64,000 nucleotides of DNA from Candidatus Nomurabacteria bacterium (GTDB lineage Bacteria; Patescibacteriota; Minisyncoccia; Phycocordibacterales; SBAW01), in the NCBI GenBank assembly GCA_943348815.1, contig CALQYT010000002.1, positions 37,129 through 101,128 on the forward strand, written 5' to 3'. The position numbers and the translations under genes were made by a program. The notes beneath the pieces are model-generated. The model did not search any database. It was given only the letters and a program-made list of their open reading frames with translations, and had not been told where the DNA came from. Below are positions 3,952 through 54,073 of the stretch, piece by piece. How positions within the stretch are numbered: position 1 is the stretch's first letter; each line of letters begins with the position of its first letter.

Positions 3952-4341
3952 ATGGGAAAGACTTTATTGTGGATCTTCGGTGTTGTGTTTGTAGTGGTCG
4001 GCCTTTTGGGCTGGGTGGACAACCCGCTCGTAGGCGCTAACGGCCTCTTCCAGACCAACACCATGCACGACCTTGTGCACCTGGTCATTGGAGTCATCTT
4101 TATCCTCGTTGCGCTCTTTGCGGCAGACAGCGGTCCGATGGCCTTCAAGGTTATTGGCGTTGTCTACCTCTTGGTGGCAGTGCTTGGCTTTGTAATGACG
4201 CCGAATGGCGGCGCGTTGCTTGGCTTGGTGCAAACTAACATGGCGGACCATTGGTTGCACGTGGTCTTGGGCGTAGTCTTGCTTGCCATCGGCTTCCTGA
4301 TGCCGGCAGACGACGCATCCTCGGGCTCCGCGATGGCGTAA
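3952..4341 (+). CDS. Small polytopic membrane protein with an internal tandem duplication
   Basis: Two hydrophobic halves share a motif: 'LLGWVDNPLVGANGLFQTNTMHDLVHLVIGVI' and 'LGFVMTPNGGALLGLVQTNMADHWLHVVLGVV'. Confidence 0.5.
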   Translation: MGKTLLWIFGVVFVVVGLLGWVDNPLVGANGLFQTNTMHDLVHLVIGVIFILVALFAADSGPMAFKVIGVVYLLVAVLGFVMTPNGGALLGLVQTNMADHWLHVVLGVVLLAIGFLMPADDASSGSAMA

Positions 4342-4401
4342 GCCACGACCTCTGTGTTCTAAACAAACGCCCCGTAAGGGGCGTTTGTTATTTTCAGCAA
4401 G

Positions 4402-5580
4402 GTGGGGTGTTATGATTGGTTCATGACTCCAGAAGGGCTTTCTAAGGTATCCCAAGAAGTATCTTTAAAAGAAAATTTATTTGAAGCTGCTGATCGTGCC
4501 GATACTATACGCAAATGGGGGTTACTTCCAATTGCAACAGCCCTCGCTCTTACGACCATTTCGACTTATAAGGAAGGATCGGCACAGGCAGCGGAAGTGA
4601 CTCCCGGCATGACCTGGGAGGAGGGATTTAACGCTTTGAGAGATGATGTATTTACTAATCCGAACGAGCAGGCAGCATATGTAATTGTCAAAAAAGATGG
4701 CACCGTGTATTGGTCGGGGTCGACGGCTGGACAACGAGGGCGAGTGTTGCCTTCGACGAAGACAATAACCGAAGCGTTGGGGCGCGAGGCCCCCGGTTCC
4801 TTACAAGGACTTTGTTCTTTTCATACACATCCGCCGCGATCAGGTGGTTTGATTTCGATTGATGAGAAACGCGTCCTCGGCAATAGAGCGACCACTTTTT
4901 CGGTACCACCAAGTGGAGGGGATGTTGGTGCTACAAAAGTCGTCGATAGGGAGATCCGCGCGTTACTCGAAAGGAGCAACGCGTATACAGTGGATGTCAT
5001 TTTTGATCCATCTCGGGTGTGGCGTCATCGCATTGCCACCGACTCGGATCTTCAAAAATCTCCAATCGTCTGGAATGAGCTGGCCACCAGACGCGCAAAC
5101 AGCGAGAAATACCGATCTCATATAGAGACACGATTGGCCGCTTTTTCTGAAAGTGAACTCGATCAATTTATTGCGCTTTTAGGACCGGAGGATAGCCGTT
5201 TCATCAAAATGGTCGAATCTAACCGGGGTAAAATCTTTTCTGACAGTGAGGTTATTCAATCCAAAAAATCGGCTGTGCAATACGCACTCATTAAAAATAA
5301 TGTTGCTCTTATTGCTGCATTTTTTAAAAATGATACGAAGGGGGCAGACTTACAGAAGCTATGGTACGACGCTCTGAAAGAAGTTGAAAGAGAGTCGGAT
5401 AGTTGGAATGACGTTGTCTACGGCCAGTGGGTACCCGCTTCGTATGAAGGGAAACTTACGCAAGATTTATACAAAAAGCTACAAGAGGCCTATCTTCGGC
5501 TGGGGGTTGTGCTCGAGTCGTTTACTTATGAAGAAGTTGCCAAAGATCCGTTAAAGCTTTGTAAGTGGCCTGAGAGATAA
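4402..5580 (+). CDS. Hypothetical protein (392 aa)
   Basis: Long ORF with an N-terminal hydrophobic segment and a central 'SFHTHPP...PPSGGD' motif. Otherwise unrecognised. Confidence 0.45.
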   Translation: MGCYDWFMTPEGLSKVSQEVSLKENLFEAADRADTIRKWGLLPIATALALTTISTYKEGSAQAAEVTPGMTWEEGFNALRDDVFTNPNEQAAYVIVKKDGTVYWSGSTAGQRGRVLPSTKTITEALGREAPGSLQGLCSFHTHPPRSGGLISIDEKRVLGNRATTFSVPPSGGDVGATKVVDREIRALLERSNAYTVDVIFDPSRVWRHRIATDSDLQKSPIVWNELATRRANSEKYRSHIETRLAAFSESELDQFIALLGPEDSRFIKMVESNRGKIFSDSEVIQSKKSAVQYALIKNNVALIAAFFKNDTKGADLQKLWYDALKEVERESDSWNDVVYGQWVPASYEGKLTQDLYKKLQEAYLRLGVVLESFTYEEVAKDPLKLCKWPER

Positions 5581-5641
5581 ATCGTGTTTCTATTCAAGAC
5601 CACGTTTTTCTGATATTCTCAAATCGTTATTGGGCATATAT

Positions 5642-5680
5642 TGGGGGATCGTCCCTGGCCGGGCAGGCTAACGGTAGGAC
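5642..5680 (+). repeat. Partial duplicate of the tRNA-Gln 5' half ('tgggggatcgtc'+15-nt insert+'taacggtaggac'), placed directly before the GIY-YIG start codon
   Basis: Compare 5642-5680 with tRNA-Gln 5930-5955. The 12-nt and 13-nt blocks are identical. They are separated by the insert 'cctggccgggcaggc'. Confidence 0.6.
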
Positions 5681-5926
5681 ATGCATTACCTTTATATTCT
5701 TCGAAGTCTTGCGGACAAAAAGCATTACGTGGGAATAACCACTGACTTAGGTAAACGTCTTCGTTATCACAATGCAGGAAGGGTGCGTTCAACGAAAGCA
5801 AGAATCCCCTTTGAGCTTTTGTATAAAGAAGTTTATGCTACAAGAGTTGAGGCCCGGGCTCGTGAGAAGTACTTGAAGAGCTATAAGGGTTCAAAAGAGA
5901 AACTCACAATTCTGGAAAACCTCTAA
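5681..5926 (+). CDS. GIY-YIG nuclease family protein (YhbQ/UPF0213-like, 81 aa)
   Basis: Contains 'MHYLYILRS...KHYVGITTDLGKRLRYHN', the GIY-YIG core. The stop codon lies 3 nt before tRNA-Gln. Confidence 0.8.
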   Translation: MHYLYILRSLADKKHYVGITTDLGKRLRYHNAGRVRSTKARIPFELLYKEVYATRVEARAREKYLKSYKGSKEKLTILENL

Positions 5927-5929
5927 TTT

Positions 5930-6003
5930 TGGGGGATCGTCTAACGGTAGGACAGCGGCCTTTGAAGCCGTGAATCTAGGTTCGATTCCTAGTCCCCCAG
6001 CCA
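5930..6003 (+). tRNA. tRNA-Gln (anticodon UUG), CCA encoded
   Basis: Cloverleaf read by hand. The acceptor stem is TGGGGGA/TCCCCCA with U1:A72. The anticodon loop is CTTTGAA. The T-arm is GGTTCGATTCC. Discriminator G is followed by CCA. Confidence 0.85.
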
Positions 6004-6023
6004 GTTAAAGTAGATTAAAAAAC

Positions 6024-6641
6024 ATGAGCAAAAAACAAATCTTAATGATCCATGGCGGAATGACTTTTAAAAACCAAAAGGATTATTTGCATTACCTAAA
6101 AACAAAAAAAGTTTCCGCAAAGAAGAGGCAGTATTGGGAAGCTGATCTTGAAGAGAGGTTGGAAAAAAAGTTTGAAATCATAAGACCTCGCATGCCTTTG
6201 CAAGATAATGCAAAGTATCGTGACTGGAAGATTCTCTTTGAAAGATACACACCCCTTCTCAAGAAAGACTACATTCTGATAGGTTCTTCGCTCGGGGGAA
6301 TTTTCTTGGCACAATATTTGTCAGAACACAAAATGTCTAAGAAGGCCTTGTCAGTATATCTAGTATGCGCACCTTTCGATAGCGACATTCCGACGGAAGA
6401 TCTTGTCGGCGGTTTCAAACTTAGGGGTGATTTATCTTTGTTGGAAAAGAACTGTAGAAATTTGTACCTGATGTTTTCTAAAGACGACGACGTAGTGCCG
6501 GTCTCGCACGCGGAGAAATATAGAAAGAGACTAAAAAATGCGAAGATCTTGGTCTATAAAGGAAAGAAAGGACATTTCACTGTTTCTAAATTCCCCGAAA
6601 TCATCGGCCTAATTAAAAAAGACGTTTTGCTAAAGGTATAA
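6024..6641 (+). CDS. Alpha/beta hydrolase, serine hydrolase family
   Basis: Contains the 'GSSLGG' nucleophile elbow. The coding sequence is markedly AT-rich compared with its neighbours. Confidence 0.6.
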   Translation: MSKKQILMIHGGMTFKNQKDYLHYLKTKKVSAKKRQYWEADLEERLEKKFEIIRPRMPLQDNAKYRDWKILFERYTPLLKKDYILIGSSLGGIFLAQYLSEHKMSKKALSVYLVCAPFDSDIPTEDLVGGFKLRGDLSLLEKNCRNLYLMFSKDDDVVPVSHAEKYRKRLKNAKILVYKGKKGHFTVSKFPEIIGLIKKDVLLKV

Positions 6642-6648
6642 TCAGAAA

Positions 6649-6972
6649 ATGCCGAGCCAAGTTATTTTTCTCCTCCTATTGTTCGTTGCGGTTGCGTTAG
6701 AAACTATCGCCGACATTTTGTTTAAGGCGTCGTACCTTCAAAATCGTTCAGTCTTAATTGTTGCGGGAGTCGTTTTGTACACTGTAGGGACGGTCATATG
6801 GGCGCTCTCGTTGCGCTATGAGTTTCTGTCAAAAGCAATTTCTATTTTTACGGTCTTAAATCTGATTGCGGTACTCTTAGCGGGCTTTGTTATTTTTAAC
6901 GAACATCTTTCATTACTAAACAAAGTAGGCATTGGTTTGGGGATTATCAGTGTGATTTTGATGCAGCTTTAG
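6649..6972 (+). CDS. Small 4-TM membrane protein, SMR/EamA(DMT)-like
   Basis: 107 aa with four hydrophobic helices. The first helix carries 'ETIADILFK'. Confidence 0.45.
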   Translation: MPSQVIFLLLLFVAVALETIADILFKASYLQNRSVLIVAGVVLYTVGTVIWALSLRYEFLSKAISIFTVLNLIAVLLAGFVIFNEHLSLLNKVGIGLGIISVILMQL

Positions 6973-6983
6973 CTACGTAAATT

Positions 6984-7727
6984 ATGCAAATCATAAAAAC
7001 AAAAAGTTTTGAGATAGCGGTATATGTCAAAGGAGATCCGCGGTCATCCAAACTCGCCATTGTTATACCCGGTAGACTAGATACCAAAGACTACATTCAT
7101 AACACTAGCCTTGTAGATCTTTTGGCAGACAAAAATTATTTTGCCCTGTCTTTTGACCCGCCGGGAACGTGGGAGAGCTCGGGTGATATAGATTTGTATA
7201 CGACAACCAACACTATCAAGGTGGTTGATGAACTTATAGAATATTTTGGTAATAAACCTACGCTGCTTGCGGGTCACAGCAGGGGTGGGACGGTTGCGAT
7301 GCTTGTGGGGCCAACCAATCCGTATGTCACGCACATAATCCCAATTTTTTCGCACCCTGGAGCGCCAAGCGACCCGGAACCCGAGCGTGTAGTGGCTGGA
7401 AAGCTCATAAGTTATCGAGATCTTCCTCCGGGTACAGAAAAGACAAAAGAGCAGAAGAAATTCGAGCTGCCGCTTAGCTACTTTGAAGATGGGGCGCGGT
7501 ATGATGCATTGCCAGGGTTAAAAACTTACACGAAACCAAAACTTTTCTTTTTTGGGGCGCTCGATGTCATGAATACGCCTGATGGGGTAAAAGAAGCTTT
7601 TGATGCAAGCGCAGAACCAAAAGAAATCTGCGGTATAGAGTCTGAACATGATTATCGTCTGAGAGCTGAAGCTGTACGAGAAGTGAATAGCAAAATAGGG
7701 AAGTTTTTAGAAAATTTTACCTGGTAA
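6984..7727 (+). CDS. Alpha/beta-fold hydrolase
   Basis: Contains a 'GHSRGG' nucleophile motif. Length 247 aa. Confidence 0.6.
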   Translation: MQIIKTKSFEIAVYVKGDPRSSKLAIVIPGRLDTKDYIHNTSLVDLLADKNYFALSFDPPGTWESSGDIDLYTTTNTIKVVDELIEYFGNKPTLLAGHSRGGTVAMLVGPTNPYVTHIIPIFSHPGAPSDPEPERVVAGKLISYRDLPPGTEKTKEQKKFELPLSYFEDGARYDALPGLKTYTKPKLFFFGALDVMNTPDGVKEAFDASAEPKEICGIESEHDYRLRAEAVREVNSKIGKFLENFTW

Positions 7728-7740
7728 ACCTCTTTCGTTT

Positions 7741-8232
7741 ATGACCTACCACCCAACTGTAGAAAAAATAAAAAGCCTGCTTATTGAAAACGGGTATTGG
7801 TTTGAGACGTTTGAACATGAGCCGGTGCGCACGAGCGAGGAGGCTGCAAAGATACGGATAGGGTACACCCTCGAACAAGGCGCAAAGGCTATTATTGCCC
7901 GGGTAAAAGAGCTCGGCGTCGGCAAAAAGTTTGTTATGTTGGTAATGCCCGCGAATAAAAAATTTGATCCGGCCAAAATTAAAAGCAATTTAGGATTGAT
8001 TGATATTAGATTTGCCACCGAGCCAGAAGTTACAGAAATTACCAATGGGGTATTACCGGGCGGCGTGCCCCCGTTTGGAAATTTGTTTAACCTGCAAGTA
8101 TTTGCAGACAAAACGCTGTTTGATAACGAAAAAATAGTATTTAACGCCGGCGACCGCAGCTACTCTATTGCGATGAAATCAGCCGACTATCAGAAGATTG
8201 TTGTCCCGACCGTAGCAGACATTTGCCAATAG
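7741..8232 (+). CDS. YbaK/ProX-type aminoacyl-tRNA deacylase domain protein
   Basis: Typical YbaK-like domain. Contains '...GVLPGGVPPFGNLF...'. 163 aa. Confidence 0.7.
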   Translation: MTYHPTVEKIKSLLIENGYWFETFEHEPVRTSEEAAKIRIGYTLEQGAKAIIARVKELGVGKKFVMLVMPANKKFDPAKIKSNLGLIDIRFATEPEVTEITNGVLPGGVPPFGNLFNLQVFADKTLFDNEKIVFNAGDRSYSIAMKSADYQKIVVPTVADICQ

Positions 8233-39769: not shown

Positions 39770-39794
39770 CTGCTTCGCCAAGGCTTCGCAGTGC
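39770..39794 (+). repeat. 25-nt tRNA-trailer repeat, copy 1 (CTGCTTCGCCAAGGCTTCGCAGTGC)
   Basis: Begins immediately after the tRNA-Val discriminator. Together with the tRNA 3' end it forms GCACTGC...GCAGTGC. Confidence 0.6.
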
Positions 39795-39883: not shown

Positions 39884-39909
39884 CAAAGTGATATAGTTTT
39901 TTGGCTTAA

Positions 39910-39980: not shown

Positions 39981-40005
39981 CTGCTTCGCCAAGGCTTCGC
40001 AGTGC
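39981..40005 (+). repeat. 25-nt tRNA-trailer repeat, copy 2
   Basis: Identical to copy 1. Begins right after the tRNA-Ala(CGC) discriminator. Confidence 0.6.
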
Positions 40006-40106: not shown

Positions 40107-40346
40107 ATGCACTATGTGTATATTCTCCAAAGTCAGGTGGATGGAAGTTTATATGTGGGTGTCACCGAGGATATAAAACGTCGTTTTGTCGAACACAATA
40201 ATGGTAATGCTAAATATTCAAGCTCGAAACGGCCTTATAAACTGAAATGGTTTTGTGCATTCCCAACGAAACAAAAGGCACTTATCTTCGAAAGATATCT
40301 AAAACACGGTTCCGGTTTTGCTTTTGCACGAAAACATTTAATTTAA
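40107..40346 (+). CDS. GIY-YIG nuclease family protein (YhbQ/UPF0213-like, 80 aa)
   Basis: 'MHYVYILQSQVDGSLYVGVTEDIKRRFVEHNNG'. The ORF-track call 39924-40346 runs through tRNA-Ala. The real start is the Met at 40107. Confidence 0.8.
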   Translation: MHYVYILQSQVDGSLYVGVTEDIKRRFVEHNNGNAKYSSSKRPYKLKWFCAFPTKQKALIFERYLKHGSGFAFARKHLI

Positions 40347-53422: not shown

Positions 53423-53651
53423 GTTTTATAAAAACAGTGGCGGCGCCCATAAATGGACGCCGCTGGGGTAGATAGGGCATTCGAGGCTGCTCCGCACCTT
53501 GGTAAGAAACCCGCAATGGGTTGCCAACTACATGACACGCTCTCCTTGTGTCTAGGCGGTATATTGTACTCTTTATATTTTATTTGTCAAGTTTAGAAAA
53601 TTATGTAAAATAAGGAGGAAAAAAGGGCCCGCCCGACACACTAGAACGGCC

Positions 53652-53933
53652 TTGCAAGACGACATGTACTACGTCTATTTGTTGAAAAGTAGAAAAGATA
53701 AAAAATTGTACACGGGATACACTGACAACTTGCGTCGTCGTCTTGCAGAACATACCTCTGGTAAAAATATTTCTACCCGTTCACGTTTACCTCTCGATTT
53801 GATATATTACGAAGCGTACTTGTCGAAGGCTGACGCGATATCCCGAGAGCAGCGTCTCAAATCGTCACTTGGTGCTCGAACTGCACTTAATCGCAGAATA
53901 GGGGATAGCCTTCGACTAGGCCGTTCAGTGTGA
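53652..53933 (+). CDS. GIY-YIG nuclease family protein (YhbQ/UPF0213-like)
   Basis: 'MYYVYLLKSRKDKKLYTGYTDNLRRRLAEHTSG'. The stop TGA lies 1 nt before tRNA-Ala(GGC). Confidence 0.8.
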   Translation: MQDDMYYVYLLKSRKDKKLYTGYTDNLRRRLAEHTSGKNISTRSRLPLDLIYYEAYLSKADAISREQRLKSSLGARTALNRRIGDSLRLGRSV

Positions 53934-53934
53934 C

Positions 53935-54007
53935 GGGCCCGTAGCTCACTTGGTAGAGCGCTTCCATGGCATGGAAGAGGTAACCGGTTCGATCCCGGTC
54001 GGGTCCA
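53935..54007 (+). tRNA. tRNA-Ala (anticodon GGC), no encoded CCA
   Basis: Acceptor GGGCCCG/CGGGTCC with G3:U70. D-arm TAGCTCACTTGGTAGAGCG. Anticodon loop ATGGCAT. T-loop TTCGATC. Confidence 0.85.
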
Positions 54008-54073
54008 CAAAGTGCCACATTAATAGGTTTTTGTCTTCTTGTTGCTCATAAGGAACCCATTTATAGTGCCTTC

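Follow-up and report, generated by a model that had tools for sequence, protein, structure and literature searches.

A GIY-YIG nuclease gene and a split partial tRNA copy at a bacterial tRNA-Gln gene: a candidate selfish cassette of tRNA genes

Introduction

SsnA of Neisseria meningitidis is a 94-aa single-domain GIY-YIG protein with catalytic residues Y6, Y17 and E64 that binds its hairpin repeat solely as single-stranded DNA (ssDNA) and cuts a few nucleotides upstream of it (Chenal et al. 2025, PMC11893778). Cognate hairpins as a rule flank the ssn genes, and different homologues prefer their own; the term 'tRNA' occurs 0 times in the paper, which reports neither tRNA linkage nor target duplication (PMC11893778). 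Here we describe a GIY-YIG gene (W1) in a 64,000-nt stretch of a Candidatus Nomurabacteria genome (contig CALQYT010000002.1, positions 37,129 to 101,128; hereafter the window, in whose numbering all coordinates are given unless a locus is named). The W1 open reading frame (ORF) lies between a partial copy of the 5′ end of a tRNA-Gln gene, itself split by a short GC-rich insert, and the intact tRNA gene. The reading favoured here, to which we assign a probability of roughly 0.55, is that W1 is a selfish, homing-type cassette that colonises tRNA genes and is composed of an SLX1/UPF0213-like GIY-YIG nuclease and its cognate hairpin.

Several other kinds of element share parts of this layout. Islands and prophages that integrate at tRNA genes use the conserved tRNA as a landing site, are bounded by direct repeats and leave a partial tRNA duplicate that keeps the gene intact; their recombinase is of the tyrosine or serine type, the duplicated part is usually the 3′ end, and they extend over kilobases. 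REP/BIME elements (RAYT) and fungal mitochondrial GC clusters consist of short, GC-rich palindromic sequences that proliferate, become nested and are found in either orientation; the REP palindromes are tied to RAYT, a small hairpin-specific HUH (Y1) nuclease, and are dispersed through the genome. SegB, a free-standing GIY-YIG homing endonuclease of phages T4 and T6, has roughly 220 aa with a C-terminal DNA-binding region. Its gene is reported to lie among tRNA genes, which the enzyme cuts internally (Chihara et al. 2026, PMC13096335; PMC2330249), and the nuclease drives tandem amplification of the segB-tRNA unit in a manner that also requires recombination (PMC13096335). The REP/RAYT analogy has also been drawn for Ssn (PMC11893778). 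A survey of the superfamily describes prokaryotic stand-alone SLX1-like proteins as the minimal GIY-YIG form, with methyltransferase fusions as the sole context noted and a link to tRNA or RNA metabolism suspected (Dunin-Horkawicz et al. 2006, PMC1564403). A literature search for the layout of tRNA fragment and hairpin found no description of it.

Results

Anatomy of the tRNA-Gln locus

The W1 ORF, with a Pfam GIY-YIG match at E=2e-16, ends 3 nt before a tRNA-Gln(UUG) gene that is called by ARAGORN and matched over its full length by Rfam RF00005 (64 bits, E=9e-13); ARAGORN, Rfam and Pfam thus agree with the pairing of the two genes given in the initial annotation of the window (Table 1). Immediately upstream of the ORF is a second copy of tRNA-Gln positions -4 to 25 (linear numbering; window 5638-5681), the final base of which, position 25, is the A of the W1 ATG. 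This copy is formed by two direct repeats. The first, ATATTGGGGGATCGTC (5638-5653), is identical to ATTTTGGGGGATCGTC (5926-5941) at 15 of 16 positions, and the second, CTAACGGTAGGACA, is identical to 5941-5954 at all 14. They are separated by 15 nt, CCCTGGCCGGGCAGG, with a one-C ambiguity at the boundary, such that the insert falls within the 5′ strand of the D-stem between tRNA positions 11 and 12. The 12-mers of both repeats occur at only these two sites in the window (~0.15 expected by chance) and gapped local alignment of the fragment with tRNA-Gln gives z=8.9-10 against shuffles, which bears out the earlier observation of a partial tRNA 5′ copy abutting the ATG and split by 15 nt. No partial copy was found for any of the other five tRNAs in the window, and no inverted repeat flanking 5681-5926 was found.

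Table 1. Features of the tRNA-Gln locus (W1) and the other GIY-YIG ORFs of the window.
Feature	Coordinates	Strand	Remarks
Promoter-proximal block TCTGATATTCTCAAA	5609-5623	+	-10-like TATTCT at 5614-5619; native tRNA-Gln locus inheritance
Partial tRNA-Gln copy, first half TGGGGGATCGT	5638-5652	+	Leader ATAT and tRNA positions 1-11
GC-rich 15-nt module CCCTGGCCGGGCAGG	5653-5667	+	Minimal Gln-clade palindromic module; termini CCCTGGCCG / CGGGCAGG
Partial tRNA-Gln copy, second half CTAACGGTAGGACA	5668-5681	+	Positions 12-25; last A is the start-codon A
W1 GIY-YIG nuclease gene, 81 aa, single domain	5681-5926	+	Stand-alone SLX1/UPF0213-like group
Leader ATTT of the intact tRNA	5926-5929	+	Overlaps last base of the stop codon; repeats ATAT of 5638-5641
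Intact tRNA-Gln(UUG)	5930-6003	+	ARAGORN; Rfam RF00005
Third GIY-YIG ORF, 79 aa	40107-40346		125 nt after tRNA-Ala(CGC), behind a terminator-like hairpin
W2 GIY-YIG ORF, 89 aa	53664-53933		Ends 1 nt before tRNA-Ala(GGC) 53935-54008

The gene is intergenic, free-standing and outside any intron, as judged from the ORF list and an Rfam search of 4000-8000. That search, at E<=1, returns the tRNA alone, and a group I or II intron or other known RNA around the fragment was rejected on these grounds. A second tRNA or a tRNA-like fold in 5642-5680 was rejected as well: ARAGORN and Rfam report none there and the DNA folds no better than shuffled sequence. A scan of 5400-6200 for sigma-70 consensus promoters and terminators gave no matches, the block at 5609-5623 included; this block, with its -10-like hexamer, is a putative promoter. 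Co-transcription of the W1 ORF and tRNA-Gln is plausible, because the gap is 3 nt and neither a promoter nor a terminator match lies between them.

Occupied, empty and decayed sites

The tRNA-Gln core sequence was used to scan metagenomes, which yielded 120 loci; 103 of these extend far enough upstream to be assessed. Ninety of the 103 are empty, containing neither ORF nor fragment; nine (~9%) have a GIY-YIG ORF, with the fragment present in seven of the nine, and at least four have a hairpin-bearing fragment without an ORF. (L numbers here and below denote loci from other genomes or metagenomes.) Fragments lacking a GIY-YIG ORF are thus rare, and where they occur the ORF is visibly decayed or deleted: the ORFs of L085 and L183 are 5′-truncated, and in L101 the ORF is wholly deleted, leaving positions 1-10 and a perfect 18-bp palindrome followed by the tRNA.

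The order dnaX then tRNA-Gln is a common Patescibacteria context, and the cassette lies between the two in W1, L001, L007, L010 and L012. This context is present in 19 metagenomic loci, in seven of which only 26-61 nt separate the dnaX stop codon from the tRNA. At the closest relatives, three loci with DnaX 67% identical to that of the window, all sites are empty. The comparison with related genomes that the initial annotation proposed therefore finds orthologous dnaX-tRNA-Gln sites that are single tRNA genes, with no ORF or fragment. The empty sites also locate the point of entry: TCTGATATTCTCAAA aligns with TCTGCTATCCTCAAA / TTTGCTATTCTTTGG, situated 8-9 nt before tRNA +1 in the empty loci L098, L126 and L100. 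The fragment consequently sits at the native promoter-proximal position, which supports entry of the cassette into the tRNA gene with an intact copy downstream, as had been supposed from the window itself.

The fragment matches its own tRNA

Sixteen Gln-clade loci with 13 distinct tRNA 5′ sequences permit comparison of each fragment with the tRNA beside it. Fragments differ from their own tRNA by 0.38 mismatches per 22 nt, versus 5.08 from the tRNAs of other genomes, and none of 20,000 permutations equals the own-tRNA match. The match covers an unpaired D-loop base (TAACGG/TAATGG) that is not required by RNA pairing, and decays past position 22, near the start codon. Recent insertions, gene conversion between the copies, or a functional requirement are all possible causes of this identity. 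An old, vertically inherited arrangement, suggested by the synteny with dnaX, was given up, as the dnaX-tRNA-Gln context is mostly empty; recent insertions can therefore also explain the match.

Recurrence at tRNA genes

Eighty loci were fetched, one genome per species, of which 71 could be assessed for tRNA adjacency. A same-strand tRNA lies within 130 nt of the ORF in 58 of the 71 and all 58 neighbouring tRNAs are on the same strand as the ORF, downstream of it in 48 loci and upstream in 10, with 20 anticodons represented. The hosts include Patescibacteria, Bacteroidota, Planctomycetota, Omnitrophota, Elusimicrobia and Acidobacteriota. The partial copy is found on the far side of the ORF in either arrangement: by gapped alignment, the 5′ part of the same tRNA lies upstream of the ORF in 37 of 38 loci whose tRNA is downstream, and the 3′ part, sometimes together with its terminator, lies downstream of the ORF in 12 of 13 whose tRNA is upstream. 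The duplicated target varies from 7 to >110 nt between subfamilies, and in many loci the ORF stop codon falls inside the tRNA. No known RNA genes were found beside the family members that lack a tRNA neighbour.

Tandem arrays of ORF and tRNA copy, ending in one normal tRNA, are present in L015, L017, L023 and L066. Within GIY-YIG arrays, ARAGORN calls 'tRNA-Pro' in L015:1284-2449 and L017:2737-3172 where the D-arm is replaced by a GC hairpin, and a 'tRNA-Lys' call in L020:2722-2817 likewise has a GC hairpin in place of the D-arm; in all three loci this hairpin is GCCCCGCC-NNNN-GGCGGGG. Just one tRNA copy per array has a normal D-arm, and the hairpin-bearing calls look like disabled pseudo-tRNAs that are still reported by tRNA finders. 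Some Gln-clade loci have two tandem fragments (L008:2390-2500, L011:2390-2500 and L184), with an internally deleted ORF between the two in L011 and a second, solo fragment between ORF and tRNA in L184; this suggests that tandem fragments arose by unequal recombination between repeated tRNA segments.

Palindromic modules

Almost every partial tRNA copy is broken by GC-rich palindromes, which fall at tRNA positions that recur between loci: 11|12 for Gln, Met and Ala, 22|23 for Val, Ala, Lys and Arg, and others for Ser, Pro and Arg. The hairpins cluster within 250 nt beside the ORF and are not genome-wide repeats; the Gln-type motif is present in a single copy in the window. All 19 Gln-clade loci have a split tRNA copy with the same tRNA position and the same insert termini. 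Among the 16 Gln-clade modules tabulated, every one begins with CCCTGGCCG and all end in GGGCAGG except that of L010 (GGGTAGG), with interiors of 0 to ~20 nt. The 15-mer of W1 is the shortest form and is identical, at the same tRNA position, in L001, L004, L005, L008 and L011 (six genomes with W1); nine other genomes have modules of 31-35 nt with the same termini.

Modules are shared beyond a single tRNA or host. One 32-nt module, CCCGCCCGAACGTACCGTTCGGTACGGGCGGG, is shared without any difference by a tRNA-Val locus of Scalindua and a tRNA-Ala locus of Gelidibacter, and its exact reverse complement occurs at the same tRNA position elsewhere, giving five forward and five reverse copies; modules are also nested or in tandem. 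The occurrence of both orientations favours a DNA-level entity over an RNA motif. Covariation in the module stems gives no support either way, because the outer stems never vary.

Clustering of the nuclease sequences shows that module type goes with nuclease clade irrespective of tRNA or phylum. The Gln clade has the Gln-type module (19/19 copies), the Ala/Val/Arg/Met/Ile/Asp clade has CCCGCC(C/T)G...CGGGC(G/A)GG types, the Pro/Ser/Lys clade has short CCCGCC-N3-6-GGCGGG hairpins, and the Verrucomicrobia/Acidobacteria clade has a 14-nt inverted repeat unlike these. Cognate nuclease-hairpin pairs would be expected to show such a pattern. The initial annotation read the split copy as the scar of an insertion or gene conversion. 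Insertion with retention of a functional tRNA is supported; a passive, one-off scar with an unexplained 15-nt insert is not, given the same split copy at 19/19 Gln-clade loci, the close match of each fragment to its own tRNA, and an insert that belongs to a module family co-varying with nuclease clade.

The 81-aa nuclease

The W1 protein matches PF01541 (E=2.1e-16, 60.4 bits against a cutoff of 22.6) over profile positions 1-74 of 78, and residues Y5, Y16, G18, R26, H30 and E62, among them the two tyrosines, the arginine, the histidine and the metal-binding glutamate of the catalytic motif, are invariant in an alignment of 30 homologues. Its AlphaFold2 model (mean predicted local distance difference test score 96.2) has the beta-beta-alpha-beta-alpha-alpha order of the GIY-YIG fold, with strands at 2-9, 15-20 and 44-52 and helices at 23-32, 55-66 and 68-79. 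The catalytic domain spans all 81 aa and there is no separate DNA-binding domain. Foldseek matches the model to UPF0213 proteins, SLX1, the UvrC N-terminal domain and I-TevI, with query-normalised TM-scores of 0.61-0.70 for SLX1 chains versus 0.54 for I-TevI. Profile comparison with the PDB gives 8.5e-16 for 1zg2 (UPF0213 protein BH0048), 4.6e-12 for 1ywl (EF2693) and 6e-6 for SLX1. By both profile and fold the protein is thus nearest to the UPF0213 proteins, then to the structure-specific endonuclease SLX1, with UvrC and I-TevI more distant, and by these sequence and model comparisons it is assigned to the stand-alone SLX1/UPF0213-like GIY-YIG group. A search of NCBIfam gave no score above cutoff for W1.

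An identical protein in the same context is present on six contigs from several samples. A profile search of 1.84 billion representative proteins places 8,396 clusters (50% identity) in the family at E<=1e-10, mostly of 80-130 aa. A phage origin was rejected, with just four relatives among 2.9 million viral contigs, as was a defence system, PADLOC returning nothing for W1 and only faint matches for W2.

Other GIY-YIG cassettes

The window contains three GIY-YIG ORFs, each beside a tRNA. W2 is bracketed by inverted repeats CACACTAGAACGGCC (53637-53651) and GGCCGTTCAGTGTG (53919-53932), and has on its left side a 7-nt copy of tRNA-Ala(GGC) positions 1-7 (GGGCCCG, 53625-53631). Related W2-type elements are likewise bounded by inverted repeats, with the right end abutting tRNA +1 and a left flank of 7-13 nt of the local tRNA; their proteins are 63-79% identical and are found at Ala(GGC), Ala(TGC), Ala(CGC), Pro(CGG) and Val(GAC) genes and at three non-tRNA intergenic sites (L209-L221).

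The third ORF has a CCTGC...GCAGG hairpin ~20 nt before its ATG, and no partial tRNA copy was detected at 40107-40346. A 79-aa GIY-YIG gene is found at the same position after tRNA-Ala(CGC) in L216-L219 and L221, matching the third ORF in position and length. In L216-L221 (e.g. L216:602-971) a Val-Pro-Ala cluster has a W2-type cassette directly before tRNA-Ala(CGC); the corresponding tRNA-Pro(CGG)/tRNA-Ala(CGC) spacer of the window (39885-39909, 25 nt) is an empty site. The 25-nt sequence CTGCTTCGCCAAGGCTTCGCAGTGC follows both tRNA-Val(CAC) (39770-39794) and tRNA-Ala(CGC) (39981-40005) and may be a shared trailer or processing element.

A Verrucomicrobia/Acidobacteria subfamily is flanked by 14-nt inverted repeats CACCCCGTGAGATA / TATCTCACGGGGTG (L073:2419-2743, L027:2470-2755 and L044:2465-2750) and is inserted precisely within tyrosine-recombinase (integron-integrase-like) genes, with codons neither gained nor lost (e.g. 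the L073 junction ...LLGHKDV | KTTMIYTHVL...). L073 has an ORF-less hairpin copy alongside, and L027 a second GIY-YIG ORF ~130 nt downstream.

Genes surrounding the cassette

The window has a stretch of low GC content at ~5000-8200 (0.38-0.45, versus ~0.55 either side), comprising the 3′ end of ORF 4402-5580, the cassette, and four downstream genes that encode two alpha/beta hydrolases, an SMR-like transporter and a YbaK-type tRNA-editing domain protein. ORF 4402-5580 (392 aa, GTG start, no Pfam match) lies between a DUF4383 gene and the cassette and is missing from the dnaX-tRNA-Gln interval in most related loci. Because the low-GC stretch continues downstream of tRNA-Gln, an integrase-type island was considered there; it was rejected in that there is no recombinase among the neighbours and no downstream repeat of the tRNA 3′ end, and neither an integrase nor an att-like repeat was found in ~5000-8200. 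The cassette also differs from tRNA-integrating islands in having no recombinase, in duplicating mostly the 5′ end of the tRNA, and in its size of ~0.3 kb.

Discussion

Comparison with described systems

W1 resembles the Ssn family (CDD cd10448) in being a protein of 80-94 aa with a GIY-YIG domain only and an equivalent set of catalytic residues (Y6/Y17/E64 in SsnA versus Y5/Y16/E62 in W1). In both, the gene adjoins conserved, clade-specific hairpin repeats of 20-50 nt, of which W1 itself has just the 15-nt minimal form; they differ in that the hairpins here are almost confined to a partial copy of the adjacent tRNA gene, rather than being genome-wide. The same confinement to tRNA pseudo-copies separates the modules from REP/RAYT elements. 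SegB is comparable as a GIY-YIG gene among tRNA genes of many isotypes, but it is phage-encoded, whereas the present family is nearly absent from viral contigs, and the SegB reports consulted mention neither partial tRNA duplication nor palindromic modules. With the Seg and Mob homing genes more generally, the cassettes have in common their sporadic presence at a conserved intergenic site and the existence of degenerate copies; W1 differs in having no separate DNA-binding domain for a long target. The UPF0213 proteins that provide the best sequence and fold matches (BH0048, 1zg2; EF2693, 1ywl) are uncharacterised, and linkage to tRNA genes, tRNA fragments or hairpins is not reported for them. 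The W1 locus can be described as an Ssn-like nuclease-hairpin pair combined with a SegB-like tRNA association, the two coupled through partial target duplication.

A proposed selfish cassette that colonises tRNA genes

If W1 is a homing-type cassette, positions 5609-6003 would contain one intact copy at the 5′ end of tRNA-Gln, and the fragment and its 15-nt insert would be conserved, functional components of a widespread element, or at the least would invariably accompany it. By analogy with the NTS/SRM hairpins of the Ssn nucleases, the module would be the cognate recognition hairpin, and the nuclease would cut beside it within tRNA-derived DNA. Repair of the break by recombination between the tRNA copy and tRNA genes could then transfer the cassette to empty alleles by way of conserved tRNA sequence, homogenise the fragment with the tRNA, and build arrays. 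At an empty allele cut at 11|12, the 3′ end left by the cut would anneal to positions 1-11 of the donor fragment; its extension would copy, in turn, the module, positions 12-25, the ORF and positions 1-11, and the new strand would then re-anneal to the remaining tRNA and reproduce the observed structure. Insertion would be nearly neutral for the host, because the partial duplication of the target always leaves an intact tRNA. By interrupting the redundant copy, the module would leave shorter direct repeats through which the cassette could be lost, and would probably abolish a second cleavage site. The tRNA promoter would drive one transcript of nuclease and tRNA, from which RNase P would free the tRNA.

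Several points weigh against this interpretation. Nuclease activity, hairpin binding and mobility are attributed to the W1 cassette by analogy, and its kinship with Ssn is likewise suggested by shared features. The 81-aa domain has no DNA-binding module of its own, leaving specificity for tRNA genes unexplained unless the hairpin supplies it; the W1 15-mer, a truncated form, gives no stable hairpin when folded alone. The modules near the ORFs do not match the Ssn SRM motif: the published motif has no match near any ORF and one in the window, which is the chance level. No tRNA is adjacent to 13 of the 71 related loci. Simple homing leaves the acquisition of new tRNA sequences unexplained, and the immunity of an occupied allele is unaccounted for when the intact tRNA downstream keeps the uninterrupted sequence. 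Finally, the W2-type relatives resemble insertions with short target duplications.

A broader proposal, which we regard as tentative and clearly less probable than the homing-type cassette as such, is that these cassettes constitute a new class of autonomous mobile element whose sole protein is a hairpin-specific (ssDNA) GIY-YIG nuclease of ~80 aa, with the hairpin module rather than the protein addressing the target. Cleavage beside the hairpin within tRNA-derived DNA would allow host repair to paste the cassette into tRNA genes, each gene being restored through target duplication. Mobility of this type would be distinct from classical homing, transposition and site-specific integration. At ~0.3 kb such an element would possibly be the smallest autonomous mobile element known, to our knowledge.

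Alternative explanations

Since the W2-type relatives look like insertions with target duplication, a transposon-like mechanism stays the main rival, although we consider it unlikely. The nuclease would here be the sole 'transposase' of an insertion sequence (IS)-like element, making staggered cuts at the tRNA 5′ end that are filled in, with the -4 to 25 repeat as target-site duplication and the ORF-less modules mobilised in trans in the manner of miniature inverted-repeat transposable elements (MITEs). Such an origin fits the inverted repeats of the W2-type relatives, their occupation of five tRNA genes as well as three non-tRNA sites, and the 7-13-nt left-side copy of the local tRNA 5′ end in each; L073 pairs an ORF-less inverted-repeat hairpin with an ORF-bearing one, modules are nested, tandem and in both orientations, and the Ssn authors liken NTS-ssnA-NTS to an insertion sequence (PMC11893778). 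It accords poorly with the W1-type ORFs, which have no flanking inverted repeats, with target repeats of 7 to >110 nt between subfamilies, which seem not to reflect a fixed stagger, and with the integrase-gene subfamily, which inserts without any duplication. GIY-YIG enzymes, moreover, hydrolyse DNA and are not known to rejoin it.

An RNA-level role of the upstream tRNA half, as a leader that directs RNase P, a stabiliser or regulator of the mRNA, or a guide to the tRNA gene, is improbable. The fragment would form part of the 5′ untranslated region, up to the ATG, and its sequence agrees in every case with that of its own tRNA; the protein it would assist has no DNA-binding domain, and processing and translation would interact at the many loci where the ORF stops inside the tRNA. 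An RNA function is nonetheless difficult to reconcile with an identical module in both orientations at one position (L019 versus L029), with a match that reaches the unpaired D-loop base, and with the 10 loci in which the fragment is downstream of the ORF. Rfam finds nothing tRNA-like or other in 5642-5680, the strand folds no better than shuffles, and SsnA does not bind RNA (PMC11893778).

Domestication for a host function is similarly doubtful. The functions envisaged are upkeep or adjustment of tRNA copy number, or guarding of tRNA loci in transformation or recombination, modelled on proposals for SegB in phage T6 and SsnA in Neisseria. SsnA does modulate transformation (PMC11893778), SegB-driven tRNA amplification is reported to be adaptive for the phage (PMC13096335), and the family has tandem ORF-tRNA arrays and intact ORFs with conserved catalytic residues. 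The additional tRNA copies of the arrays mostly have disabling D-arm hairpins, however, the cassette occupies only ~9% of equivalent tRNA-Gln sites, ORF truncations and ORF-less remnants are common, and PADLOC gives no defence match. A last rival, in which the repeat is accidental, comes from misassembly or is the decaying remnant of a tandem tRNA duplication with no relation to the ORF, is for practical purposes already refuted. Tandem tRNA duplication does happen and short repeats do confuse assemblers, but the similarity stands at z=9-10 against shuffles, the identical protein and context recur on six contigs from several samples, and the same split copy is present in dozens of independent genomes.

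Implications

Thousands of small genes are annotated as 'GIY-YIG nuclease family protein' without a function; to judge from W1 and its relatives, many may be selfish cassettes linked to tRNA genes. If so, this would provide a biological context for stand-alone GIY-YIG and Ssn-like nucleases beyond Neisseria, and would account for several features that confuse annotation, namely odd fragments of tRNA genes, pseudo-tRNAs with hairpins, and tRNA arrays. The cassettes would also offer candidate nuclease-hairpin pairs as potential new ssDNA tools, and a tractable system for gene-specific targeting by a protein without a DNA-binding domain.

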